NCBI GenBank assembly: GCA_902791625.1
Contig: CADAWN010000001.1
Location: 35,333 to 99,332, forward strand
DNA from: an uncultured Erysipelotrichaceae bacterium
GTDB lineage: Bacteria > Bacillota_I > Bacilli_A > RF39 > UBA660
Reading direction: 5' to 3'
DNA length: 64,000 nt
Below, one piece after another: positions 19,734 through 62,283 of this stretch (position 1 is its first letter; the number at the start of each line of letters is the position of its first letter). Both the position numbers and the translations under genes were made by a program. The notes below the pieces were generated by a model. That model was given only the letters and a program-made list of their open reading frames with translations, was not told where the DNA came from and did not search any database.

Positions 19734-22082
19734 TTAATATTCAGTTGCGCCGATTGCATCCTTGTCAACTACACCATCAAGTGAAGTCTTAAAGAGTTCA
19801 GCATCGTCAAGAATATCAAGATTTTCAGTATCCTTAACCATTGTAGAACCGTCATTCTGCTCTTCATTGTCAACCATATTATACTTAATAAGTCTAACCA
19901 TTACTTTATCATCTGGACGAAGAACTTTAAGTTCCATATCAAATACAGAAGGATCTCCATCTGCTTCCATTGTAATTGTTTGCTCTCCGCCAATTTTAGC
20001 TTCTGGAATATTAATCTGGAATCTCTCTTCCTCTCCAGTTGATTTAGACTTAATAAATGTATCTCCAACAACCTTATATGTTCCAGGGAACTTATCTGCA
20101 GAGATTTCAATCATATCACCAAGGCTTTCTCCATCATAAGCGACAGAACGAGTAAACTTAATGAACTCTTCACCTTCAGCGATTGGAGTACCATCTGCAT
20201 AAGGTTCCATTGTTGCTGGGTCAATAAATACAGTACAAGCAAACATATCAGCCTCAGAAGGATAACCATTAGCATTTCCACCAGGTACAATAAAGCTTCT
20301 TGCAGCAGTAAATTTCTTTGTTACATCAAGCTTCTTAACTGGCTTAGTAGCTTTAGAAAGTTCATTTCCATCGGCACCAAACATTACAGCCATAGAAGCT
20401 GGTGAGAACAGTGCATCTTGAAGTGTAAGAGTAATCTCCTTACCGAAGTCCCAACCCATCAACTGACCATTTCCATGTCCACCAGTAGCAAATACTTCTT
20501 CAGCAGTTGCATTTAATGTAGAAACTTTTAATGTATCAAGGAAAAGAACTGGTTTATATCTCTTAACTTTCTTAAGGGTTTTATGAATTTTAATTCCCTT
20601 TACAGTACAAGTTGCTTCAAAAGTTTCATTATTAACAGTAACTTCTGTTGTATGGATAAGACCACTAGCAACAAGTTGTTTTGCCTGATTATCATTTACA
20701 AAATTACCTTCTGTAATCATCCAAGCAACCTTAGTTAAATCTTTCTTACCATTTCTATTAGCAACAAAGATAAGTCCAGAAGTTCCAATAATTACAAGTG
20801 CAAGGAATTCAGTTCCAGCAAAAATCTTATCTTGGTAATAAAGTCTGTTACCTGCTTTATCTAAGAATTCAAAGATACCATCTTCATCAAGAGCAAGTTT
20901 CTTTGCGTTCTTATTCTTTAACAGATAAATATATGCACCAGCGGCAGTATCTACTGAACCGTCAACCTTAACATAAATTGCTCTATTAGATATTTCAGAA
21001 CCAGTAGTTAACTCTACATCTAAAGTCTTTCCAGTTGCACTACCTGTTGCAGCAATTTCAGCAACGGCTTCTTTTACAGCCTTTAAGTTGTACTTAGCAT
21101 GAATATCGCCAACTTGTGTTCCATCTACTGAGAATTGATAACTATTGCCGTCAACTAAATCAGTATCTCCAGGATTAGGCTTATCATCGCTAACTTTATA
21201 TCCGCCTTGAATTGCATCTATACCAGAAGCGGCATTAATCTCACCATAATCAAGTACTAATTTCTTCTGTTTTAATGCATCAATAGCATCATTAATAGAG
21301 TTATGAACACCATCGTCCCACATTACTGCATTTGCAATAGCTTTATCTAACTTATCAGCAAACATAGTAGCATAACTTTTTGCGCCAGTTGCAGTAAAGA
21401 AATCTACAGTACCTACGCCATTGTTTCTACTATACTTATAACCAAGATATTTAGGATTATAATAACCCATTTCATCTTCAACTACAAGCTCAGCATAATC
21501 ATCATATGTAATATCATATGCTTTTGCTACTTTATAAGTTTTTAATTTAATTATTTCTTCATTGATTTCCTTTAAATCATAAGTGTCTTCTGTAAATTTA
21601 TTAGCTAAACCTACAACAACAACCTTCTCTTTTGAATAAGGGTCTGCGGCAAAATTATCATTAAAAGTAAGATTACCAAATTTTGTTGCAGAATCTTCAA
21701 AAGCATATCTTACACCAGTTTTAGCAATTATATTCTGTCTTTTTGCAAATAATTGACATACTTGCTCTGGATAAGTAAATTCATGAGATACAGCAGTTTC
21801 ATCTATATCTGTTTCTGGATCATCGTCATCTTCGTGTTTATAAGTAACACCAGTAATAATATCAGCGTCAACAAAAACATAAGCTTTAAAGCCATCTTCT
21901 GTTCCAACACCATTATCATCTAAAGGATAAACATTTTTTAATTCAAGGCAGCTTCTTAAAATTGAACCATCAGTAATTTTTCTTTGAGATTCATAAGCTT
22001 CTTCTTTCTGTTCAATCTTGTAAAAAGTAACGTCACAAACGTCCTTAATACCATATTTCTCAAAAAGGTTTTGACTAGCCAT
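19734..22082 (-). CDS. Putative major tail protein P1 (782 aa), free of TAG
   Basis: This is an intact track ORF with AAGGAGG upstream. It shares N-terminal (NLFEKYGIKDVCDVTFY), central (PVLFLDTLKVS..GGHGNGQLMGWDFGKEITLTLQDALFSPAS) and C-terminal (FPGTYKVVGDTFIK..MEADGDPSVFDMELKVL) blocks with P2-P4. It lies between the connector genes and the TMP and is visibly more GC-rich than P2-P4. Confidence 0.6.
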   Translation of the reverse strand: MASQNLFEKYGIKDVCDVTFYKIEQKEEAYESQRKITDGSILRSCLELKNVYPLDDNGVGTEDGFKAYVFVDADIITGVTYKHEDDDDPETDIDETAVSHEFTYPEQVCQLFAKRQNIIAKTGVRYAFEDSATKFGNLTFNDNFAADPYSKEKVVVVGLANKFTEDTYDLKEINEEIIKLKTYKVAKAYDITYDDYAELVVEDEMGYYNPKYLGYKYSRNNGVGTVDFFTATGAKSYATMFADKLDKAIANAVMWDDGVHNSINDAIDALKQKKLVLDYGEINAASGIDAIQGGYKVSDDKPNPGDTDLVDGNSYQFSVDGTQVGDIHAKYNLKAVKEAVAEIAATGSATGKTLDVELTTGSEISNRAIYVKVDGSVDTAAGAYIYLLKNKNAKKLALDEDGIFEFLDKAGNRLYYQDKIFAGTEFLALVIIGTSGLIFVANRNGKKDLTKVAWMITEGNFVNDNQAKQLVASGLIHTTEVTVNNETFEATCTVKGIKIHKTLKKVKRYKPVLFLDTLKVSTLNATAEEVFATGGHGNGQLMGWDFGKEITLTLQDALFSPASMAVMFGADGNELSKATKPVKKLDVTKKFTAARSFIVPGGNANGYPSEADMFACTVFIDPATMEPYADGTPIAEGEEFIKFTRSVAYDGESLGDMIEISADKFPGTYKVVGDTFIKSKSTGEEERFQINIPEAKIGGEQTITMEADGDPSVFDMELKVLRPDDKVMVRLIKYNMVDNEEQNDGSTMVKDTENLDILDDAELFKTSLDGVVDKDAIGATEY

Positions 22083-25385: not shown

Positions 25386-26531
25386 TTATGGATTTGGCTT
25401 ATAACCGTTTGTAGTCTTACCAGTCCAGTTTGCTACAAATTTAGTAGGATACTGTGTAGGATAAGCTTGTGTATCCTGAAGGTCTGTATTTACATATACA
25501 CCCCAATCATTATTGGTAAGAATAGCTACACCAACTTTCTTATAAGCTTCTACTTCCATTGTTCTATCTCTACCCTTGAAATCATCAACAATAGTATCGC
25601 CTTCGAAAACAATCTTAACTGGCTTACTCTTACCATTAGGGAATACATAAGCAAGAGCAGGATTTACTACAGTAGTAGTATTGTTATCGTCAGTAAATGA
25701 CTGTGGAATTTCAACAATAGGGTTGCCACGGAAAGTCTTAATTCTACCATACTGAGCAATCTCTTCAATGTTTCTAGGATTATATACAGGTGTTGCAACA
25801 CCAGTAGCACCAGAATTTCTTGCCCAAGCCATTGGCATACCAATTGCCTCAGGTCCCATAGCCTGTACGAATTCAGGAGCAGCGAAAATTGTAACTCCGC
25901 CATCACCATAAGTACCAGCAATGGTTACAAGTTGCTGCATACCATCTGGATCAAAGCCGGCACTAATAACCTTATTTCTTGCAGGACGATCATCAGCATT
26001 AACTGCGGCAATAAGAGCTTGCTGAATTAAACCATAAATTGCCTCAACCATACCCTCAAGAAGAATTTCAGCAACTTCTGCAACATCCTCTTGACCACAA
26101 ATATATCTTTCAAAGTCAATAATACCAGTACCACCAATTGCGCTAGCACTTACTTCAAAAGTATCGCTATCAAGTCTGAAAGCCTCATATACACCAGAAG
26201 GTGCAACTGCTGTTACAAACTGCTTAGCTCTACGTCTACCTCTCTTAACTACAAACTGTGCTTTTTCATTATTTGCAACCTGCTTAATTTCAGCAAACAT
26301 TGACATAAATTCTTCTACAGTCTTAGGAAGAACTTCATCAAAAGCCTCTTGCATAATTTCAAAAATATCTAATCTATTTCTACGATAAGAATTAAAATCA
26401 TAAGCAAGCTCATGTAAAGCATTAGAGGTTGCCTTCTTTATATCTTCAACTTGATATTTAGTAGGATTTGGAGTTGTTCCTCTGAATGAATGAACAATTA
26501 AATCCTTAATCATTTGCTTTTTATTCTCCAT
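25386..26531 (-). CDS. Major capsid protein (HK97-fold type), 381 aa, TAG-free
   Basis: Intact track ORF with AAAGGAGGT upstream. It follows the scaffold gene. The sequence has MCP character (..AVAPSGVYEAFRLD..GGVTIFAAPEFVQAMG..). Its GC content is elevated and its codon usage looks optimised. Confidence 0.75.
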   Translation of the reverse strand: MENKKQMIKDLIVHSFRGTTPNPTKYQVEDIKKATSNALHELAYDFNSYRRNRLDIFEIMQEAFDEVLPKTVEEFMSMFAEIKQVANNEKAQFVVKRGRRRAKQFVTAVAPSGVYEAFRLDSDTFEVSASAIGGTGIIDFERYICGQEDVAEVAEILLEGMVEAIYGLIQQALIAAVNADDRPARNKVISAGFDPDGMQQLVTIAGTYGDGGVTIFAAPEFVQAMGPEAIGMPMAWARNSGATGVATPVYNPRNIEEIAQYGRIKTFRGNPIVEIPQSFTDDNNTTTVVNPALAYVFPNGKSKPVKIVFEGDTIVDDFKGRDRTMEVEAYKKVGVAILTNNDWGVYVNTDLQDTQAYPTQYPTKFVANWTGKTTNGYKPNP

Positions 26532-46098: not shown

Positions 46099-46449
46099 AT
46101 GACACAGAGAGATTTTTACAACGCAATCGCTAACAACACAGAGCTTGCACCTGAGCTTACAGATTTTGCAAAGGAAGCTATCAAGGCACTCAACAAGAAG
46201 AATGAGGCACGCAATAGCAAGGCAAACGCAAAGAAGGCAGAGGTCAATGCACCTATTATTGCCGCTATCCGTGAGGTACTTGCAGACGGCAAGCCGCATT
46301 TTGCAGGTGATGTTGCCACAGCAGTAGAGCAGTCACTCCCAAAGGTTGCCGCACTTGTTAAGACTATGGCAGATGTAGCCGTATCAAAGGCAAAGCCGGA
46401 GGGCGCAAAGGCAAAGAAAACTGTTTACACTCTTGTTGTTGAGCAGTAG
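46099..46449 (+). CDS. Small Lys/Ala-rich protein with a winged-helix-like C-terminus, paralog 1 of 4; ends in TAG
   Basis: Track ORF MTQRDFYNAIANN... The leader contains GGAGAAAGAGG. Tandem promoters lie at about 45826 and 45962. GC content is higher and the codons look optimised (AAG/GCA-rich). Confidence 0.7.
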   Translation: MTQRDFYNAIANNTELAPELTDFAKEAIKALNKKNEARNSKANAKKAEVNAPIIAAIREVLADGKPHFAGDVATAVEQSLPKVAALVKTMADVAVSKAKPEGAKAKKTVYTLVVEQ

Positions 46450-46777
46450 TCAATAAATGGAAACGGTGAACAAAAGTTCGCCGTTTCTTTTTTTCTAATT
46501 AGTTAAAAATTTTAACTATTACGAAATTATGAACATTGCGATAGTTCTATTTATAACAAAAGTATGAACAATACGATAGGTTAATGTCGTATTATTAACA
46601 TAATCTTAACATTTTGTACTGCCGCACTGTTCATATTTTCGCAACATTTTAGCACTTTAAACTACTAAAGTGTTCGTAACCACTTTGTAACCTTTTGTAA
46701 TAATTCTGTAATTGACTTTTATAGTTATATGTTGTATAATACGTATAGAAACTTAAAGAAAGACAGGTGTTCAAAAA

Positions 46778-47440
46778 TTGAATAAGCGTTTGTATATTGT
46801 ACTTGACACGGAAACTACAAACAACATGGATTTTCCTTTTGTTTATGATTTAGGTTTTTCCGTTGTTGACAAAACAGGCAAGGTATATTACAAAAGGTCA
46901 TTTGTAATTTATGATATTTATGTGCTTTGCAAAGACTTAATGAGAACAGCGTACTATGCAAATAAACTCCCACAATATGAAATTGACTTGAAATCTAAAA
47001 AGCGTGAACTTGTTAGATTTTCCACGGCAAGAAAAATTATACTCCAAACAATGAAAAAGTATAATATATATGCAATTATGGCACACAATATGCGTTTTGA
47101 CCTTAATGCACTTAATACCACTTTAAGATATATAACAACATCACAACAGAGGTATTTTTTCCCACAAGGCACAAGACTTTGGTGCACTTTGGCAATGTCA
47201 AGGTCAATTTTCAAAAACAAACCTACATACAAGAGGTATTGTGAAGAAAACGGATACTTGACAAGAAACAAGCAAATAAAACTCACAGCGGAAATTATTT
47301 ACAGGTTTATTACTGGAAATAATGACTTTGTTGAAAATCACACGGGACTTGAAGATGTAATGATAGAAAAGGAAATTTTTTCCTACTTGAAAAGACAGCA
47401 TAAAAAAATGCAGTTGACTTACTGGAAAGAAACGGCATAA
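46778..47440 (+). CDS. DEDDh (DnaQ-like) 3'-5' exonuclease, copy 1
   Basis: The track ORF contains the motifs VLDTETTN, AHNMRFDLNALN and HTGLEDVMIEKEIF (H-x4-D). Confidence 0.75.
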   Translation: MNKRLYIVLDTETTNNMDFPFVYDLGFSVVDKTGKVYYKRSFVIYDIYVLCKDLMRTAYYANKLPQYEIDLKSKKRELVRFSTARKIILQTMKKYNIYAIMAHNMRFDLNALNTTLRYITTSQQRYFFPQGTRLWCTLAMSRSIFKNKPTYKRYCEENGYLTRNKQIKLTAEIIYRFITGNNDFVENHTGLEDVMIEKEIFSYLKRQHKKMQLTYWKETA

Positions 47441-48990: not shown

Positions 48991-49332
48991 ATGACACAGA
49001 GAGATTTTTACAATGCAATCGTTAAGGCAGATGTAGCACAGGAGTTGAAGGACTATGCAAGCGCACAGGTTCAGGCACTTAACAACAAGAACTCCGCAAG
49101 AAATGTCAAGGCAAGGGCAAAAAAGGCAGATGAAAACAAACCCCTTGTAGCACAGATTAAGACAATCCTTGCAGACGGTCAGGCACATACTTGCTCTGAA
49201 ATTTCCGCAAGCACTGGCGCAAATATTCCTAAGGTATCCTCCCTTATAACCACATATTTCAAGGATACTGTTATAAGAGAAACTGTTAAGGTAGACAAGA
49301 AGAGGGCAGTTGCATATCGCCTTGCACAGTAG
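48991..49332 (+). CDS. Small winged-helix-like protein, paralog 2 of 4; ends in TAG-TAA
   Basis: Track ORF MTQRDFYNAIVKAD... Its leader AGAGAGCCGAACTCAATAAAACGGAGAAAG is conserved. Confidence 0.7.
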   Translation: MTQRDFYNAIVKADVAQELKDYASAQVQALNNKNSARNVKARAKKADENKPLVAQIKTILADGQAHTCSEISASTGANIPKVSSLITTYFKDTVIRETVKVDKKRAVAYRLAQ

Positions 49333-49540
49333 TAAAAATTGGAAAACGGCAGAAATGCCGTTTTTCTTTTCACTTAATTAGTTAAAAATTTTAACTATTG
49401 CCGCGGGTCGTAATGTTCATAATTCCATAATATTTAAAATAAATAACAAATTCACAAAACTTTAATAAAATAACTATTGACTTTTAATATTTTTTATGTT
49501 ATACTGTATATAGAAAATAAAAAGAAAGGTGGTTGCTAAT

Positions 49541-50158: not shown

Positions 50159-50790
50159 ATGGCAAAAAAGAAATTCTATATGGTACTTGATACCGAAACG
50201 GCAAACGGACTTGATGACCCTCTTGTTTATGATATAGGTTTTGCAATCATAGACAAAAAAGGTCAAGTCTATCTTGAAAAATCCTTTGTTATTTACGATA
50301 CTTTTGTTTTGATGAAGGACTTAATGCAGACGGCATATTATTCCGAAAAAATCCCACAGTATGAGGATGACTTAAAAAACGGTAAAAGAAAACTTGTTAC
50401 CCTTGCAACCGCACAATCAATAATTGCATATAACCTTAAAAAGTTTAATGTTAGTGCGGTAATTGCCCACAATATGAGATTTGACTATAACGCCCTTAAT
50501 ACAACCCTCCGTTATTTAACTAAATCTCAAAAGCGTTATTTTCTCCCCTATAATACTACAATTTGGTGCAGTCTTGCGATGGCACGAACAACAATAGGCA
50601 AACAAAAAACGTATCAACTTTGGTGTAAAGACTTACTGCCGAAATTCTCTACCGATATATAACAGATAATAACGATTTTATCGAAAGCCATACAGGACTG
50701 GAGGACGTTCTTATCGAAAAGGAAATTTTTGCACATTGTATTCGTCAACACAAGAAAATGCAACGCACATACTGGAAGGAAACGGCATAA
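50159..50790 (+). pseudogene. DEDDh exonuclease copy 2, disrupted by a frame-shifting internal deletion
   Basis: Residues 1-160 align with copy 1. After LWCK the frame breaks (stop at 50660-50662). The rest (RLTAEILYRYITDNNDFIESHTGLEDVLIEKEIF..WKETA) continues in another frame to TAA at 50788-50790. About 34 nt are missing relative to copy 1. Confidence 0.6.
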
Positions 50791-52064: not shown

Positions 52065-52276
52065 TCCCCTTTTTTATTTATTTAATTAGTTAAAAATTTT
52101 AACTTTCTTGCTCTGTCGCAACGTTCACAAATCCTTAACATATTACAAAACTATGAACATAGCGTCCGTCCATTTGGTTAAAACATTTAACTAATTAACA
52201 AATCCTTAACATCTCCCATGATCGAACATACGTTCGCCTCCACCATTGCATAATCTATCTATCCCCCTTCCATAAT

Positions 52277-52397
52277 CGAGCTGCAGCTGTCGAGCTACAA
52301 TCGAGCTACAGTTCCATGCGAGCTGCAAGCTGCGGCAATCAACGAGCTGGGGCGGCACTTTAGTTAAAATTTTTAACTAATTCTCCAGAATCGAGCT
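52277..52397 (+). repeat. Six CGAGCT(R)CA repeats where the two transcription blocks converge
   Basis: CGAGCT occurs at 52277, 52291, 52302, 52319, 52343 and 52392. Confidence 0.8.
52360..52380. repeat. Perfect copy of the 21-bp palindrome TTAGTTAAAATTTTTAACTAA
   Basis: Read directly from the sequence. At least 17 further near-copies lie between 40.7 and 54.5 kb and are listed in the findings. Confidence 0.85.
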
Positions 52398-52408
52398 GCA
52401 ATAAAAAA

Positions 52409-52435
52409 GATTGACTTTATAAAATAAAGCCAATC
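52409..52435. terminator. Bidirectional hairpin terminator between the convergent blocks
   Basis: GATTGaCTTTAT-aaa-ATAAAGcCAATC, flanked by A/T runs. Confidence 0.55.
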
Positions 52436-52465
52436 ATTAATATTTTACTCAAAAAATTCTACTAT

Positions 52466-53224
52466 CTAATTATTTAACAAATCATTCTTTAAGTCCTCAG
52501 AAATCTTTTGTCCCTCTGTATTCAAATACTTAACCGCTTCTCCGCCATTGGTATAATAATTAACTGACTTTAATTCAAATACACTTACTTTTGTACCCAA
52601 ATTAGTCGTTTCAATTGTAATTGTATAGTCTATTAAATCAAGTTTTTTAAGCCATATTAGCCCATTAATAATAGCTCTATTATTATCTCTATCTTTACTA
52701 AGTTTTAAAAGACCCCTTAAGTCTGCAATTGTAAATACCCTATCACAAGAACTCATATAACAAAAACGTTCTTGCATTTCTGCTAATAATAAATATAGTT
52801 TCAATTCCTACTCAGAAACGGCATAGTCATACTAAATTCTATTTAGTGTTTCTCGCGGCATAATACGATAAGGAGTTGCCTTTGGAATACTGTAGTAAGT
52901 CGCACCATCTTTCTTACGTAACATAAATTCTTTATCCCAAGTTAGGTCTAAGTGCCGCGGCCCTTCGTATTTTATTAAACCATGTTGTTCCAATAGATTC
53001 CAGTACTTTTTAATAGTATTTGGATGCATATGTAATATTTCTTTTATTTTATTAACAGTAAAGTCTTTATGTGAGAATACTCTAGGTTTATTCTTTCCAT
53101 TAAAAGTTGAAATTGAAACCAAGTATACATATAATCGCATTGAATTCCTTTGTACTTCAACTTCATCTGAAACAATCGGTAAGTTTTCTCCTGTGGCTTT
53201 TAACTGTTTTTCATTATTACGCAT
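52466..53224 (-). CDS. Replication-initiator-like protein (two winged-helix-like halves) joined across two in-frame TAGs
   Basis: Track ORFs 52832..53233 and 52466..52804 are in the same frame. They are separated only by TAG-YDYAVSE-TAG (TAGs at 52832-52834 and 52808-52810). The second half has no usable RBS. ATG at 53224 follows AGGAGGTGA, and iterons lie immediately upstream. Confidence 0.5.
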
Positions 53225-53323
53225 AAATATCACCTCCTATTATATAAGTAGGATTGAAAGACTTTTTCTCTAAAAAAATCTACACCGATTAAGATTTTAC
53301 TATAATGTTTTATTCATCTTCAT

Positions 53324-53421
53324 TTTTCCTTACTGAATCTTCACTTTTCCTTACTAATTTATCAGTTTTCCTTACTGAGTTTATCAATTTTCCTTACTGA
53401 ATCTTCACTTTTCCTTACTGA
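53324..53421. repeat. Five iterons TTTTCCTTACTGA at 21-22 bp spacing
   Basis: Copies start at 53324, 53345, 53366, 53388 and 53409. Confidence 0.85.
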
Positions 53422-53589
53422 AATCGGCTTACATATAATAGATTACTCTTTTACGAAAGAGTAAGCAGAAAAGTTGTCCTTTGTCGGCCTAAAGGACCAA
53501 AGGCCGCTCGCCACTTCGTGGCTCACTTCAAATCAAAAGATAGAATAACTAGGATTAAGGATAGGGGTATTTATTTTATTTAAAAAGTT

Positions 53590-53697: not shown

Positions 53698-53903
53698 ACT
53701 TAACTAATTTTTACTTTGTGCCGCCCTCCATAAGTCAAAACCAAGCGACCCCTTATTCCTAACAACCCCTATGTTTTGTCTGGGATAATGGGCCGCGGCG
53801 CAGCGTAATTCCAAAGCGGGGCGGCAAATTAGTTAAAATTTTTAACAAAATACCCTCCCCTATTACAAAACCTCTTTAGTTAAAAATTTTAACAAATTCA
53901 GTA

Positions 53904-53966: not shown

Positions 53967-54230
53967 TTATAGAGCAATAACTGCTACCTTAGCAATCTTA
54001 ACACCAAGAGCCTCAGCAAGCTCAGCAGTACCATGAACCTTGCCGTCTCCAAGAATAGTATTGAACTGCTCAACAAGAGGTCCGTTAATCTCTGCTTTCT
54101 TCTCTGCTGCCTTAGCTGCTCTCTTGCTATTTACCTTATCAAGATTAGCAAGTCCAGCCTTAGCAAACTCCTTAACCTCAGCCTCAACGTTAGCATTAAC
54201 AATAGCCTCAAAAAACTCTCTCTTAGTCAT
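53967..54230 (-). CDS. Small winged-helix-like protein, paralog 3 of 4 (87 aa, shorter)
   Basis: Track ORF trimmed to the ATG (MTKREFFEAIVNAN..) after GAGAAAGAGGT. Confidence 0.65.
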   Translation of the reverse strand: MTKREFFEAIVNANVEAEVKEFAKAGLANLDKVNSKRAAKAAEKKAEINGPLVEQFNTILGDGKVHGTAELAEALGVKIAKVAVIAL

Positions 54231-54839
54231 AATGTACCTCTTTCTCCTAGTCATTACTAGGTAATTAAAATGTTGATATAACTTATTAGACTTTCAATCG
54301 AAAGGAAGTAAAGAGAAGAAACGAACCCATTTTGCGCAATATTTATGCGTTTTTATTACTTTTTAGTGGCTTTTTTCTCTTTTTTCTTCCTTTCTCTCTC
54401 TTTTCTATATATATTATAGCAAAAATTTTAGAAAAAATCAACCATTTAACTTTAAAAATTATTTAAAATTAAAGTTAATTAGTTAAAAATTTTAATTAAT
54501 TCGTTTTTTAGACGAGAAAAGTTTATTTTATAGGAAAATTTAACGCCTTACGGCTATTGATTACACTTATATGCCGCGGACAGGTATTGGATGGGATTAG
54601 GGAAAGATTAGGATTGGAAGAGAAATACTCCTTTATTAATATATTAATATATTATATTAAAATATTGACTTTTAGTGTTTGTTTGCGCACACACAAAATT
54701 ATAGTATTGTACACTATTCTATACTATTGTTAACTATCCCTATTTTTGACACTATGGAGAGCTCCTCCAGGGGATAGGCATTAGTCTTACTTAGTAGTAT
54801 AGATGCCCTCTTAGATTATTGTTTACACTTTTTATTTAC

Positions 54840-59841: not shown

Positions 59842-60201
59842 TTACTGCTTAGTGTAGCAGTTTACCTTGCCCTTGCCCTTAATCTTGGTTTCACCCTTTA
59901 CAAAAGTACCATTCTCAACAAGTGCCTTCATAACAGTTGCAACCTTCTGGAAGTTAGTACCATCTGCAAGAACCTCAGCGATTGCCTTTGCAGTATAGTT
60001 AACTCCTACCTCAGTTACCTCGATAATTCTCTGGCGAAGAGCCTCATCAGCCTCAGCCTTTGCCTTAGCAGCAGGTGTCTCCTTGTTCTTTCTTGCTTCA
60101 TTTCTTGCATTGAGCTTCTCAACCTGTACCTTAGCAAACTCCTTAACCTCGTCTGTTACATTTCCCTCTGTTACTGCGTTAAAAAATTCTCTCTGTGTCA
60201 T
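59842..60201 (-). CDS. Small winged-helix-like protein, paralog 4 of 4
   Basis: Track ORF MTQREFFNAVTEGN... Its leader AGAGAGCCGAACTCGTAAAAACGGAGAAAG is conserved. Confidence 0.7.
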   Translation of the reverse strand: MTQREFFNAVTEGNVTDEVKEFAKVQVEKLNARNEARKNKETPAAKAKAEADEALRQRIIEVTEVGVNYTAKAIAEVLADGTNFQKVATVMKALVENGTFVKGETKIKGKGKVNCYTKQ

Positions 60202-61175: not shown

Positions 61176-62051
61176 TTATTTTAATATTAGCTATTTTAAA
61201 TAATCTTCATTTATTTTATTAAAATCCCAATAAGGAATTTCAATTAACTTAATATTGTTTTCTTTACACCACTATCTTTTTATATTATCCCTATTCTTTT
61301 GTTCTTCAAACTATTTTTCTCCACCAAAATACTATATTGCTTTATAATGCTATTCACCCTGATACTCTATGCAACAATTATAATTTGGTAAAAAGAAATC
61401 AAATCTTAAATTAGATTTATATTTTAAATCTCTAAAAGTCTTTTGCTGAACAAAACTAATTTTCAAAGAAGATAAAATACTATTTATTTTATCTTCTCCC
61501 TTAGAAGCTTTATAACAACCACAAGAAATAGTTGCCCCTGTTTTAAGATGATTTCCTCTAACAGAGACAATATTTCCGCAATCACATTGACATATCCAGT
61601 AAATTTCTCTATTTATTTTTGAATTATCTCTTTTTAAAACTGTTAAATAGCCAAATTTTTGTCCCGTTAAATCTATAAGTGTTTGTTTTGAAACTATTTC
61701 TTTTTGTAAGCAACCACAACTTTTAGTGTTATGACTTTTAAGACTACTACCTTTAACAGAAATAATATTTCCACAATCACATTGACATATCCAATATATT
61801 GTTCTATTTTTCTTTGAAAAATCTTGTCTTAAAACCATTAAGCGATCAAATTTCTAACCTGTCAAATCATTTATTTTTGAACAACCGCAAGTTTTTGTAT
61901 ATCCTTTTTTAAGACTATCTCCTCTAACAGAAATTGTGTTTCCACAATCACACTAACATAACCAATAAACCTTACCTTTTTTTGAAAAATCTCTTTCTAA
62001 AACAGTTAAATGACCAAATTTCTAACCTGTTAAATCAATAAATTTTCCCAT
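61176..62051 (-). CDS. Homing-endonuclease-like protein: three zinc-ribbon repeats plus a PD-(D/E)XK-like C-terminus, 291 codons, at least 8 sense TAGs
   Basis: ATG at 62049-62051 follows AAGGAGGAA. I hand-checked the codons for 61938-62051. The frame matches track ORF 61350..61838. The C-terminus [19 protein letters not shown].. resembles the endonuclease fold. The stop is TAA at 61176. Confidence 0.6.
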
Positions 62052-62073
62052 ATTTAATTCCTCCTTAAAATTT

Positions 62074-62283
62074 TTAACCCAAAACATTTTTGCAGATAGG
62101 GCAGATAGGATAGCCTACCCTATTGCTTTTAAAATATGGGAATTCATCTTTGTAAAGCGGCTCTTCACATTCTGGACAATAGAAGCAAGGAAAGTCATTA
62201 AAGTCTCCATCCAGATGATTACCAAACTTATTTAAAATAAACTGTCTTACTTCACTCCATTTATACTCAAAGCCTGCTTTCAT
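62074..62283 (-). CDS. Zinc-ribbon protein (69 aa)
   Basis: The track ORF contains CPEC..CPIC. Confidence 0.6.
   Translation of the reverse strand: MKAGFEYKWSEVRQFILNKFGNHLDGDFNDFPCFYCPECEEPLYKDEFPYFKSNRVGYPICPICKNVLG

Follow-up and report, generated by a model that had tools for sequence, protein, structure and literature searches.

In-frame TAG codons at a domain boundary of an iteron-associated, double winged-helix gene are probably ordinary glutamine codons of an amber-recoded phage

We characterized a gene on the minus strand of a 64,000-nt stretch of DNA, here called the window, from contig CADAWN010000001.1 of an assembly assigned to an uncultured Erysipelotrichaceae bacterium. Two in-frame TAG codons separate the N-terminal and C-terminal halves of this gene, and a sequence-only reading of the locus had proposed that they sit exactly at the hinge of a replication-initiator-like protein, where they would yield an N-terminal isoform before amber suppression and a full-length fusion afterwards. 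The gene and its immediate signals are located as follows.

52445..53224, minus strand: complete coding sequence of 259 codons plus TAA, with TAG as glutamine (Gln) at codons 131, 139 and 253, for two predicted tandem winged-helix domains
53231..53238, minus strand: Shine-Dalgarno sequence AGGAGGTG of the gene (AGGAGG, 8-nt spacer to the start)
53224-53222, minus strand: start codon ATG
52832..52834, minus strand: first TAG, codon 131, a Gln column conserved in the family, inside helix 124-133 of the structure model
52808..52810, minus strand: second TAG, codon 139, a column that varies among homologs (Q/L/E/M/K/T/R/I/D), located in the opening turn of helix 138-156
52466..52468, minus strand: third TAG, codon 253, a sense codon from which the frame runs on via IVEFFE to TAA
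52445..52447, minus strand: true stop TAA, in frame after IVEFFE
52409..52435, minus strand: intrinsic-terminator-like hairpin and T-run, 10 nt past the TAA

Read in a single frame, the gene consists of 130 codons, TAG, the seven codons of YDYAVSE, TAG, 113 codons, TAG, IVEFFE and TAA. The two boundary TAGs, their shared frame, the YDYAVSE spacer and the coordinates and lengths of the two halves (130 and 112 amino acids, aa) had all been read correctly, but the codon at 52466-52468 that was taken as the stop is a third in-frame TAG, and the frame continues to the TAA at 52447-52445. The resulting C-terminal tail of six residues is kept in homologs that have Q/S/N/D/E rather than TAG at column 253, and the hidden Markov model (HMM) of its family matches the protein over its full length (E = 1.6e-130). 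Of the 66 open reading frames (ORFs) tabulated in the window under a TAG-as-sense reading, 65 end in TAA or TGA, and the remaining one is cut short at the window's edge.

Standard-code gene calling divides the locus into two ORFs of 133 and 112 aa, and the 112-aa ORF found mechanically past the TAGs begins at TTG 52804. We found no Shine-Dalgarno-like motif at a workable distance before either TTG 52804 or ATG 52777; such a motif is present at ATG 53224 and at 34 of the 50 other genes of the window. Independent initiation at 52804 or 52777 was rejected on this ground, in keeping with the earlier observation that the C-terminal half lacks a convincing ribosome-binding site or ATG. The gene is present in a single copy, as a search of the window with the family HMM returned no second one, and with terminator-like hairpins on both sides it is most likely transcribed alone. 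A scan for sigma-70 promoters returned 12 candidates compared to 9.2 expected from shuffling, which is not above expectation, and we claim no promoter.

A search with the read-through protein identified 62 relatives at 39-98% identity, nearly all of them 259-272 aa long and covering the whole query; none is named and none has a Pfam domain. A profile search of a 5.8-billion-protein set returned the same family and, in addition, entries of 110-139 aa only, with no more distant or named relatives. These short entries are the gene halves expected from standard-code calling, and one of them, from a 161-kb contig, has been labelled "transcription initiation factor IIE alpha subunit" by JGI. We then compared the homologs at the DNA level, using 41 loci that group into 23 lineages, with lineages less than 90% identical to one another. 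Three lineages (L006/L021, L035 and L036) have a TAG-free gene that is one ORF in the standard code; L035 and L036 translate under that code to their database proteins; even so, more of their contigs is covered by ORFs once TAG counts as sense.

Across the 23 lineages, TAG alternates with CAA/CAG at the three Gln columns that are best conserved in the family, with 7 TAG and 9 CAA/CAG at column 25, 6 and 10 at column 131, and 4 and 16 at column 151; this alternation shows that TAG means Gln in the family. Column 139 has 2 TAG and 4 CAA/CAG codons, with other residues in the remainder. Swaps are also seen within the window's own cluster at greater than 93% identity: lineage L013 has TAG at codons 151 and 239 where the window has CAA, and L029-L034, six independent contigs 98% identical to the window's gene, have an extra TAG at codon 80 where the window again has CAA. 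Between the window and L013 there are 40 synonymous and 4 non-synonymous codon differences in the C-terminal half, and 30 and 10 in the N-terminal half, a pattern that points to purifying selection on both halves in one frame, strong in the C-terminal half. Contiguous homologs, purifying selection and the absence of an internal start signal support the earlier proposal that the two halves form one polypeptide whose synthesis needs TAG decoding. Two findings that would have spoken against it, homologs that are always encoded as separate halves and initiation at 52804 or 52777, were both looked for, and neither was found.

The relatives are contigs from uncultured sources, about 150-180 kb long and with a G+C content of about 30%. 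A blastn search of 50-56 kb of the window against GenBank phages gave a single 93-bp match, to Enterococcus phages, in a neighbouring gene, and a tblastn search of the protein against GenBank phage records gave no match. In relatives of about 160 kb the gene is present as two paralogs, with 74% and 45% identity to the window protein and a distinct iteron array for each (L001 and L004 on contig IMGVR_UViG_3300045988_166770; also L002 and L005). Three homologs of 343-345 aa (P0023, P0042 and P0043) have an N-terminal GIY-YIG nuclease domain of ~100 aa (Pfam PF01541) in place of the first ~40 residues; this could be a homing-endonuclease insertion or fusion, or an artefact of read-through calling across two adjacent genes.

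The same reading of TAG applies to the window as a whole. ORFs of at least 100 aa cover 0.54 of the window under the standard code and approximately 1.0 with TAG as sense, the longest ORF growing from 784 to 2474 aa, while reading TGA as sense brings a far smaller gain in coverage. The minus-strand block at 1-33,600 contains large, TAG-rich genes of structural type, including one ORF of 2436 aa with 71 TAGs, and the small genes at 35-63 kb mostly have zero TAG. The TAG share of all TAG, CAA and CAG codons is 0.46 in the late block, 0.126 in the other early genes and 3/8 in the initiator-like gene. TAG is thus enriched in late over early genes, as it is in phages that use genetic code 15, and the window derives from a TAG-recoded phage with an amber reassignment of the code-15 type. 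In code-15 gut phages, in-frame TAGs are abundant in structural and late genes and few in early ones, and the recoding of replication genes varies between clades (bioRxiv 10.1101/2021.08.26.457843).

Several genes of the window depart from this division. Within the TAG-rich late block, two large genes on the minus strand (19734-22082 and 25386-26531; 782 and 381 aa) are TAG-free, with neighbours that have 3-19 TAGs; they may encode very highly expressed structural proteins, such as the capsid protein, that avoid the recoded codon. In the early region, a 344-aa ORF on the minus strand (61176-62210) has 9 TAGs, a late-like load. It contains three repeats with YWxCQCDCGN, and its C-terminal end, by eye, resembles Vsr/PD-(D/E)XK nucleases, so that it looks like a homing-endonuclease-like gene. 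Borges et al. described a similarly recoded intron endonuclease within an early gene (bioRxiv 10.1101/2021.08.26.457843).

We next consider whether the placement of TAGs at the domain boundary is special. The gene has eight Gln-type sites (codons 7, 25, 80, 131, 139, 151, 239 and 253), three of which are TAG, and the chance that 131 and 139 are both among the three is 6/56 = 0.11. Across lineages, the first TAG is found at positions 7, 10, 20, 23, 25, 46, 52, 59, 80, 101, 131, 135, 180 and 254. In 14 of the 20 TAG-bearing lineages it lies within the first winged-helix domain (WH1; codons 7-101), and therefore no folded N-terminal isoform would be possible there; likewise, the TAG at codon 80 means that the proposed N-terminal isoform could not be made in the 98%-identical relatives L029-L034. 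TAG sites differ in nearly every lineage, and the conserved position that marks a programmed read-through site was not observed.

By raw counts, 14 of 76 TAGs lie in columns 129-139, which are 11 of about 260 columns. This enrichment loses significance because the boundary is rich in Gln sites: TAG accounts for 14 of 27 Gln sites in columns 129-139 compared to 62 of 176 elsewhere (Fisher p = 0.13), and when TAGs were shuffled among each sequence's Gln/TAG sites, p was 0.09 for the hinge and 0.11 for a scan statistic. Column 131 has a TAG frequency close to that of the other conserved Gln columns (25 and 151). The data do not support an isoform switch; the boundary TAGs appear, from these comparisons, to occupy Gln-type sites by happenstance. 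The proposal that they are a hinge device for two isoforms is not supported, given the wandering positions, the 14 of 20 lineages whose first TAG is in WH1, the three TAG-free lineages and an enrichment of p = 0.09-0.13.

The predicted structure places the same two codons with respect to the fold. For an AlphaFold2 model we used an alignment of 54 sequences with P0001, 98% identical to the window protein, as its first entry. The model has a mean predicted local distance difference test score (pLDDT) of 80.6 overall and 89 for residues 131-140, with a predicted template modelling score (pTM) of 0.71. The model contains WH1 at residues ~22-113, a helix at 124-133 and a second winged-helix domain at ~138-221, whose first helix is 138-156. 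This prediction for the full protein agrees with the description of the N-terminal half as winged-helix-like, and a product ending at residue 130 would hold the complete first domain. The TAGs do sit at the domain boundary, as had been claimed, but that boundary is predicted to be ordered (pLDDT 89) rather than a flexible linker, and the placement itself has a chance probability of 0.11.

The protein belongs to a small family of phage proteins that lacks annotation and, according to this model, has two winged-helix domains in tandem. Pfam Rep_3 (PF01051) gave no match at E <= 1 for the window protein or at E <= 0.01 for the 54 members, and a sequence-profile search of the PDB returned nothing relevant. 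The PHROG family phrog_186, a DnaD-like helicase loader, is matched by 35 of the 54 members (best E = 2.6e-10) in the N-terminal winged helix only; the window protein matches it with E = 1.6e-6 over residues 28-87, at profile positions 43-95 of 308. A DnaD/DnaB_2-type C-terminal domain was not detected by Pfam in the window protein or the 54 members, which returned generic helix-turn-helix (HTH) families only. A second family, phrog_3396, is matched by 14 of the 54 members, over residues 3-199 in the window protein. Among the predicted viral structures of BFVD, the two-domain fold has matches over more than 220 alignment columns, some of them named replication protein O, replication initiator or replisome organizer. 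In lineage L026, PhoH/AAA genes and an HTH protein flank the homolog, and a DnaB-type helicase comes next, with gyrase and Pol III alpha nearby; the window locus has no adjacent helicase gene.

The DNA directly upstream of the gene contains a conserved arrangement of repeats.

53324..53419, minus strand: five iterons with 21-22-bp spacing, exact TTTTCCTTACT on the plus strand, with the gene-strand core (C)AGTAAGGAAAA(G/T)TGA
53431-53439: conserved TATTATATG, between the inverted repeat and the iterons
53443..53464, unstranded: perfect 9-bp inverted repeat TTACTCTTT-TACG-AAAGAGTAA, just upstream of the iterons, with an AGTAA core in common
53470..53540, unstranded: G+C-rich, hairpin-forming stretch upstream of the palindrome, including the hairpin 53497-53476

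The iterons that had been noted upstream of the gene are therefore present as five exact copies. All 10 homolog loci examined have 21-22-bp direct repeats at the same position, reported in 3-6 copies; the bases AGTA..AAA..TG are invariant, and the bases between them are lineage-specific. The inverted repeat is also conserved across lineages, with invariant alignment columns around TTACT...AGTAA and TTATATG, and a similar G+C-rich stretch occurs in several relatives, its sequence being different in each. In seven aligned upstream regions the order is kept: G+C-rich hairpins, inverted repeat, TATTATATG, five iterons, gene. By analogy, the arrangement is that of iteron-type initiators, which double as autorepressors, and the module is the strongest evidence that the protein may function as an initiator; it is on this layout that we accept "replication-initiator-like" as the best functional guess. 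GC skew over the window tracks the direction of transcription and marks no origin.

Other repeats surround the locus. An A+T-rich palindrome, TTAGTTAAAAWTTTTAACTAA, occurs at 17 sites between 40722 and 54499 with at most 3 mismatches (0.1 expected by chance), for example at 52086-52106, 52174-52194, 52360-52380, 53829-53849 and 53876-53896; all are in the early region and many lie between small genes. It is found twice more upstream of the iterons of the L004 paralog in a 161-kb relative and is probably an early promoter or operator element common to the clade. Just downstream of the gene, at 52269-52401, there is a G+C-richer repeat, (AAT)CGAGCTRCA, in 3-4 copies per repeat family, flanked and interrupted by copies of the A+T-rich palindrome; this array could be a second protein-binding array. 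Four small paralogous genes start with MT(Q/K)R(D/E)F(F/Y)(N/E)A(I/V) (46099-46506 and 48991-49335 on the plus strand; 53967-54254 and 59842-60201 on the minus strand), and an exonuclease-like gene (phrog_20187) is present in two copies (46826-47440 and 50159-50662), so that the early region appears to have been assembled from duplicated cassettes.

Considering all of these observations, the locus probably holds a single monocistronic gene for a 259-residue double winged-helix protein, in a phage that reads TAG as Gln, and its three TAGs are ordinary Gln codons. According to this explanation, TAGs interchange with CAA/CAG over evolutionary time, and two of them happen to fall on Gln-type sites at the boundary, the one at 131 being conserved as Gln. 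Where the host uses the standard code and the phage's decoder is absent, ribosomes would halt at codon 131. Once amber decoding is active, the full 259-residue functional protein would be made, and full length would be obtainable only then. With up to 71 TAGs in a single late ORF, decoding would be nearly complete by the late phase, and therefore the short and long forms would be successive rather than coexisting. Any 130-residue fragment made before decoding would be a by-product and not a conserved second isoform. The protein would bind the DNA directly upstream of its own gene, at the five iterons and the adjoining inverted repeat, and it would serve as an origin-binding initiator or replisome organiser, as an autoregulator, or as both.

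Several observations weigh against parts of this explanation. The first concerns the decoder. A suppressor tRNA(CUA) was sought in the 64-kb window with ARAGORN and Rfam and none was found; since the only tRNA there is a tRNA-Arg(ACG), the putative amber decoder of this genome, presumably a tRNA(CUA), would lie elsewhere in the genome, outside the window. The sole tRNA(CUA) found among the relatives is a 94-nt tRNA with anticodon CTA at L012 12742-12835, 2 kb downstream of the L012 homolog, and it has a long variable arm, which is unusual for tRNA-Gln and is of type II, as in Ser, Leu and Tyr tRNAs. If this tRNA is the amber decoder there, the residue inserted in that distant lineage may not necessarily be Gln. 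The second concerns placement: the TAG share is nominally higher at the hinge (52% versus 35%), and column 133 has 4 TAG versus 1 CAA/CAG, a weak trend across the 23 lineages that would fit weak selection for TAG at the boundary.

The third concerns function. Pfam gives the protein sub-threshold, generic HTH matches only, and no curated initiator family reaches threshold. A Foldseek search against the PDB returned only generic single-domain winged helix-turn-helix regulators and TFE/TFIIE, at E >= 1e-3, apart from one weak match to an unnamed DNA-binding N-terminal domain (4pql, prob 0.63); there was otherwise no Rep structure among the matches listed. The label "replication-initiator-like" therefore stands as the best functional guess from context, given by the iteron module, the fold neighbours and the L026 gene order, but not as a match to a curated initiator family. 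Finally, the gene's TAG load is above that of its early-region neighbours (p = 0.07 versus the early rate), and reliance on the code switch may have a function of its own.

Further candidates for the decoder are found in tRNA arrays of relatives. In a 161-kb relative, following the tRNA array for another ~4.6 kb revealed no resolvable CUA anticodon. At L042 1973-2091 and L012 12410-12532, within such arrays, the Rfam model identifies tRNA genes whose anticodon loop is extended by an insert of 48-51 nt; ARAGORN misses these genes, and both inserts have the hairpin motif TTGGTGCAA(A/T)TCCAA in common. One of these insert-bearing tRNAs could be the missing suppressor.

If the dependence on decoding is functional, TAGs at any site in the gene would be retained for delaying the functional protein until the code switch, with no isoforms involved, and origin firing or a change of replication mode would then be tied to the middle or late phase. 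The gene has at least one TAG in 20 of 23 lineages (up to 10 in L040), its TAG share of 3/8 is nearer to the late block's (0.46) than to that of early genes (0.126), and a published model has recoding as a timer, with replication genes variably recoded (bioRxiv 10.1101/2021.08.26.457843). Three lineages have a TAG-free gene, though, two of them on contigs that still gain ORF coverage with TAG as sense, and the excess over the early genes does not reach significance (p = 0.07). Gating of the full-length protein by TAG is an unlikely proposition, though still a live one, while a hinge or isoform device is less likely again.

Selection of the boundary TAGs themselves, with a WH1-containing fragment of 130 residues made before suppression (for example, as an iteron-binding or dimerising inhibitor), followed by the full initiator and a shift of activity during infection, is improbable. 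The window's first TAG follows the complete WH1 (22-113), making a folded fragment plausible; TAG131 is present in 6 lineages, and TAGs at 129-139 in 10 of 23 lineage representatives and one variant; the hinge share is nominally higher; and most early genes of the window need no suppressor, so a period free of decoding is plausible. The comparison of lineages runs the other way: in 14 of the 20 that bear TAGs the first one is inside WH1, the 98%-identical relatives have theirs at codon 80, inside the recognition helix, three lineages have a TAG-free gene, conserved Gln columns 25 and 151 carry TAG about as often as 131, and neither the enrichment (p = 0.09-0.13) nor the placement within the gene (0.11) is beyond chance. 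A narrower version, in which this lineage's folded, WH1-only early fragment would occupy or bridge the iterons or poison dimers, silencing the origin until the code switch licenses firing, is very improbable; if true, it would make translational recoding a timer on DNA replication rather than lysis.

That the locus is a decaying pseudogene, or two separate genes of which the first encodes a DNA-binding protein and the second, with a start of its own, the C-terminal protein, is extremely unlikely: standard-code calling does give 133- and 112-aa ORFs and databases hold such halves separately, one under the TFIIE alpha name, but the second half lacks a ribosome-binding site or conserved start, homologs are contiguous (TAG-free ones included), in-frame purifying selection on both halves led us to reject a pseudogene, and the same TAG read-through is needed across the whole late region.

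We compared the locus to known systems. Gut phages in which TAG is reassigned to Gln (code 15) include the crAss-like, Lak, Garnet and Amethyst clades (Borges et al., bioRxiv 10.1101/2021.08.26.457843; Peters et al., PMC9523058; phAss-1, PMC10607447). As in those phages, TAGs in the window are dense in late and sparse in early genes and align with Gln, replication genes are variably recoded, and standard-code calling fragments genes. It differs in that GenBank phage records contain no DNA or protein match to the window beyond the 93-bp Enterococcus phage match, and in that no suppressor tRNA was found in its 64 kb.

Iteron plasmid initiators of the Rep_3 type, such as RepE of F, pi of R6K and RepA of pPS10, have two winged-helix domains in about 250-300 aa; beside their genes lie an array of about 22-bp direct repeats and an inverted repeat with the iteron core, and their monomers initiate replication while their dimers autorepress. 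The predicted protein likewise has tandem winged helices, and 21-22-bp repeats with a related inverted repeat adjoin its gene, but there is no sequence match to Pfam Rep_3 or to a curated initiator family, and the PDB folds it resembles are generic winged helix-turn-helix folds. R6K pi also has shorter isoforms with regulatory roles that are made from internal starts; in contrast, a short form here would come from premature termination. The DnaD-like loaders and replisome organisers of PHROG 186 share the N-terminal winged helix, and the L026 gene adjoins a DnaB-type helicase, whereas only residues ~28-87 match, the DnaD/DnaB_2 C-terminal domain was not detected and no helicase is adjacent in the window. 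Origin binders of the lambda O type are represented by name among the BFVD fold neighbours. By analogy, our guess is a mode of action similar to that of a Rep_3-type or lambda-O-type origin binder; because the sequence test came out negative, membership of these families is not established.

In programmed stop read-through, as for the Q-beta A1 protein and retroviral gag-pol, the stop is fixed and conserved, decoding is inefficient and both products coexist. The gene resembles these systems in having one ORF with an interrupting stop codon whose decoding lengthens the product. It differs from them in that TAG sites wander between lineages, and late decoding would have to be highly efficient, with 71 TAGs in one ORF.

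The main value of this analysis is a correction: standard-code annotation splits the gene into two "proteins", public databases already contain such halves, and the apparent hinge design vanishes when the DNA of homologs is compared. The gene is an amber-recoded gene of the already known code-15 type, and the unannotated, iteron-associated double winged-helix family to which it belongs is newly defined here. In a clade of uncultured phages of about 160 kb with amber recoding, the palindrome and five-iteron module is a good candidate for the origin. The protein can be made only with amber decoding in most lineages of the family, in agreement with the published variable recoding of replication genes, and the gene is therefore a convenient test case for asking whether recoding times replication.

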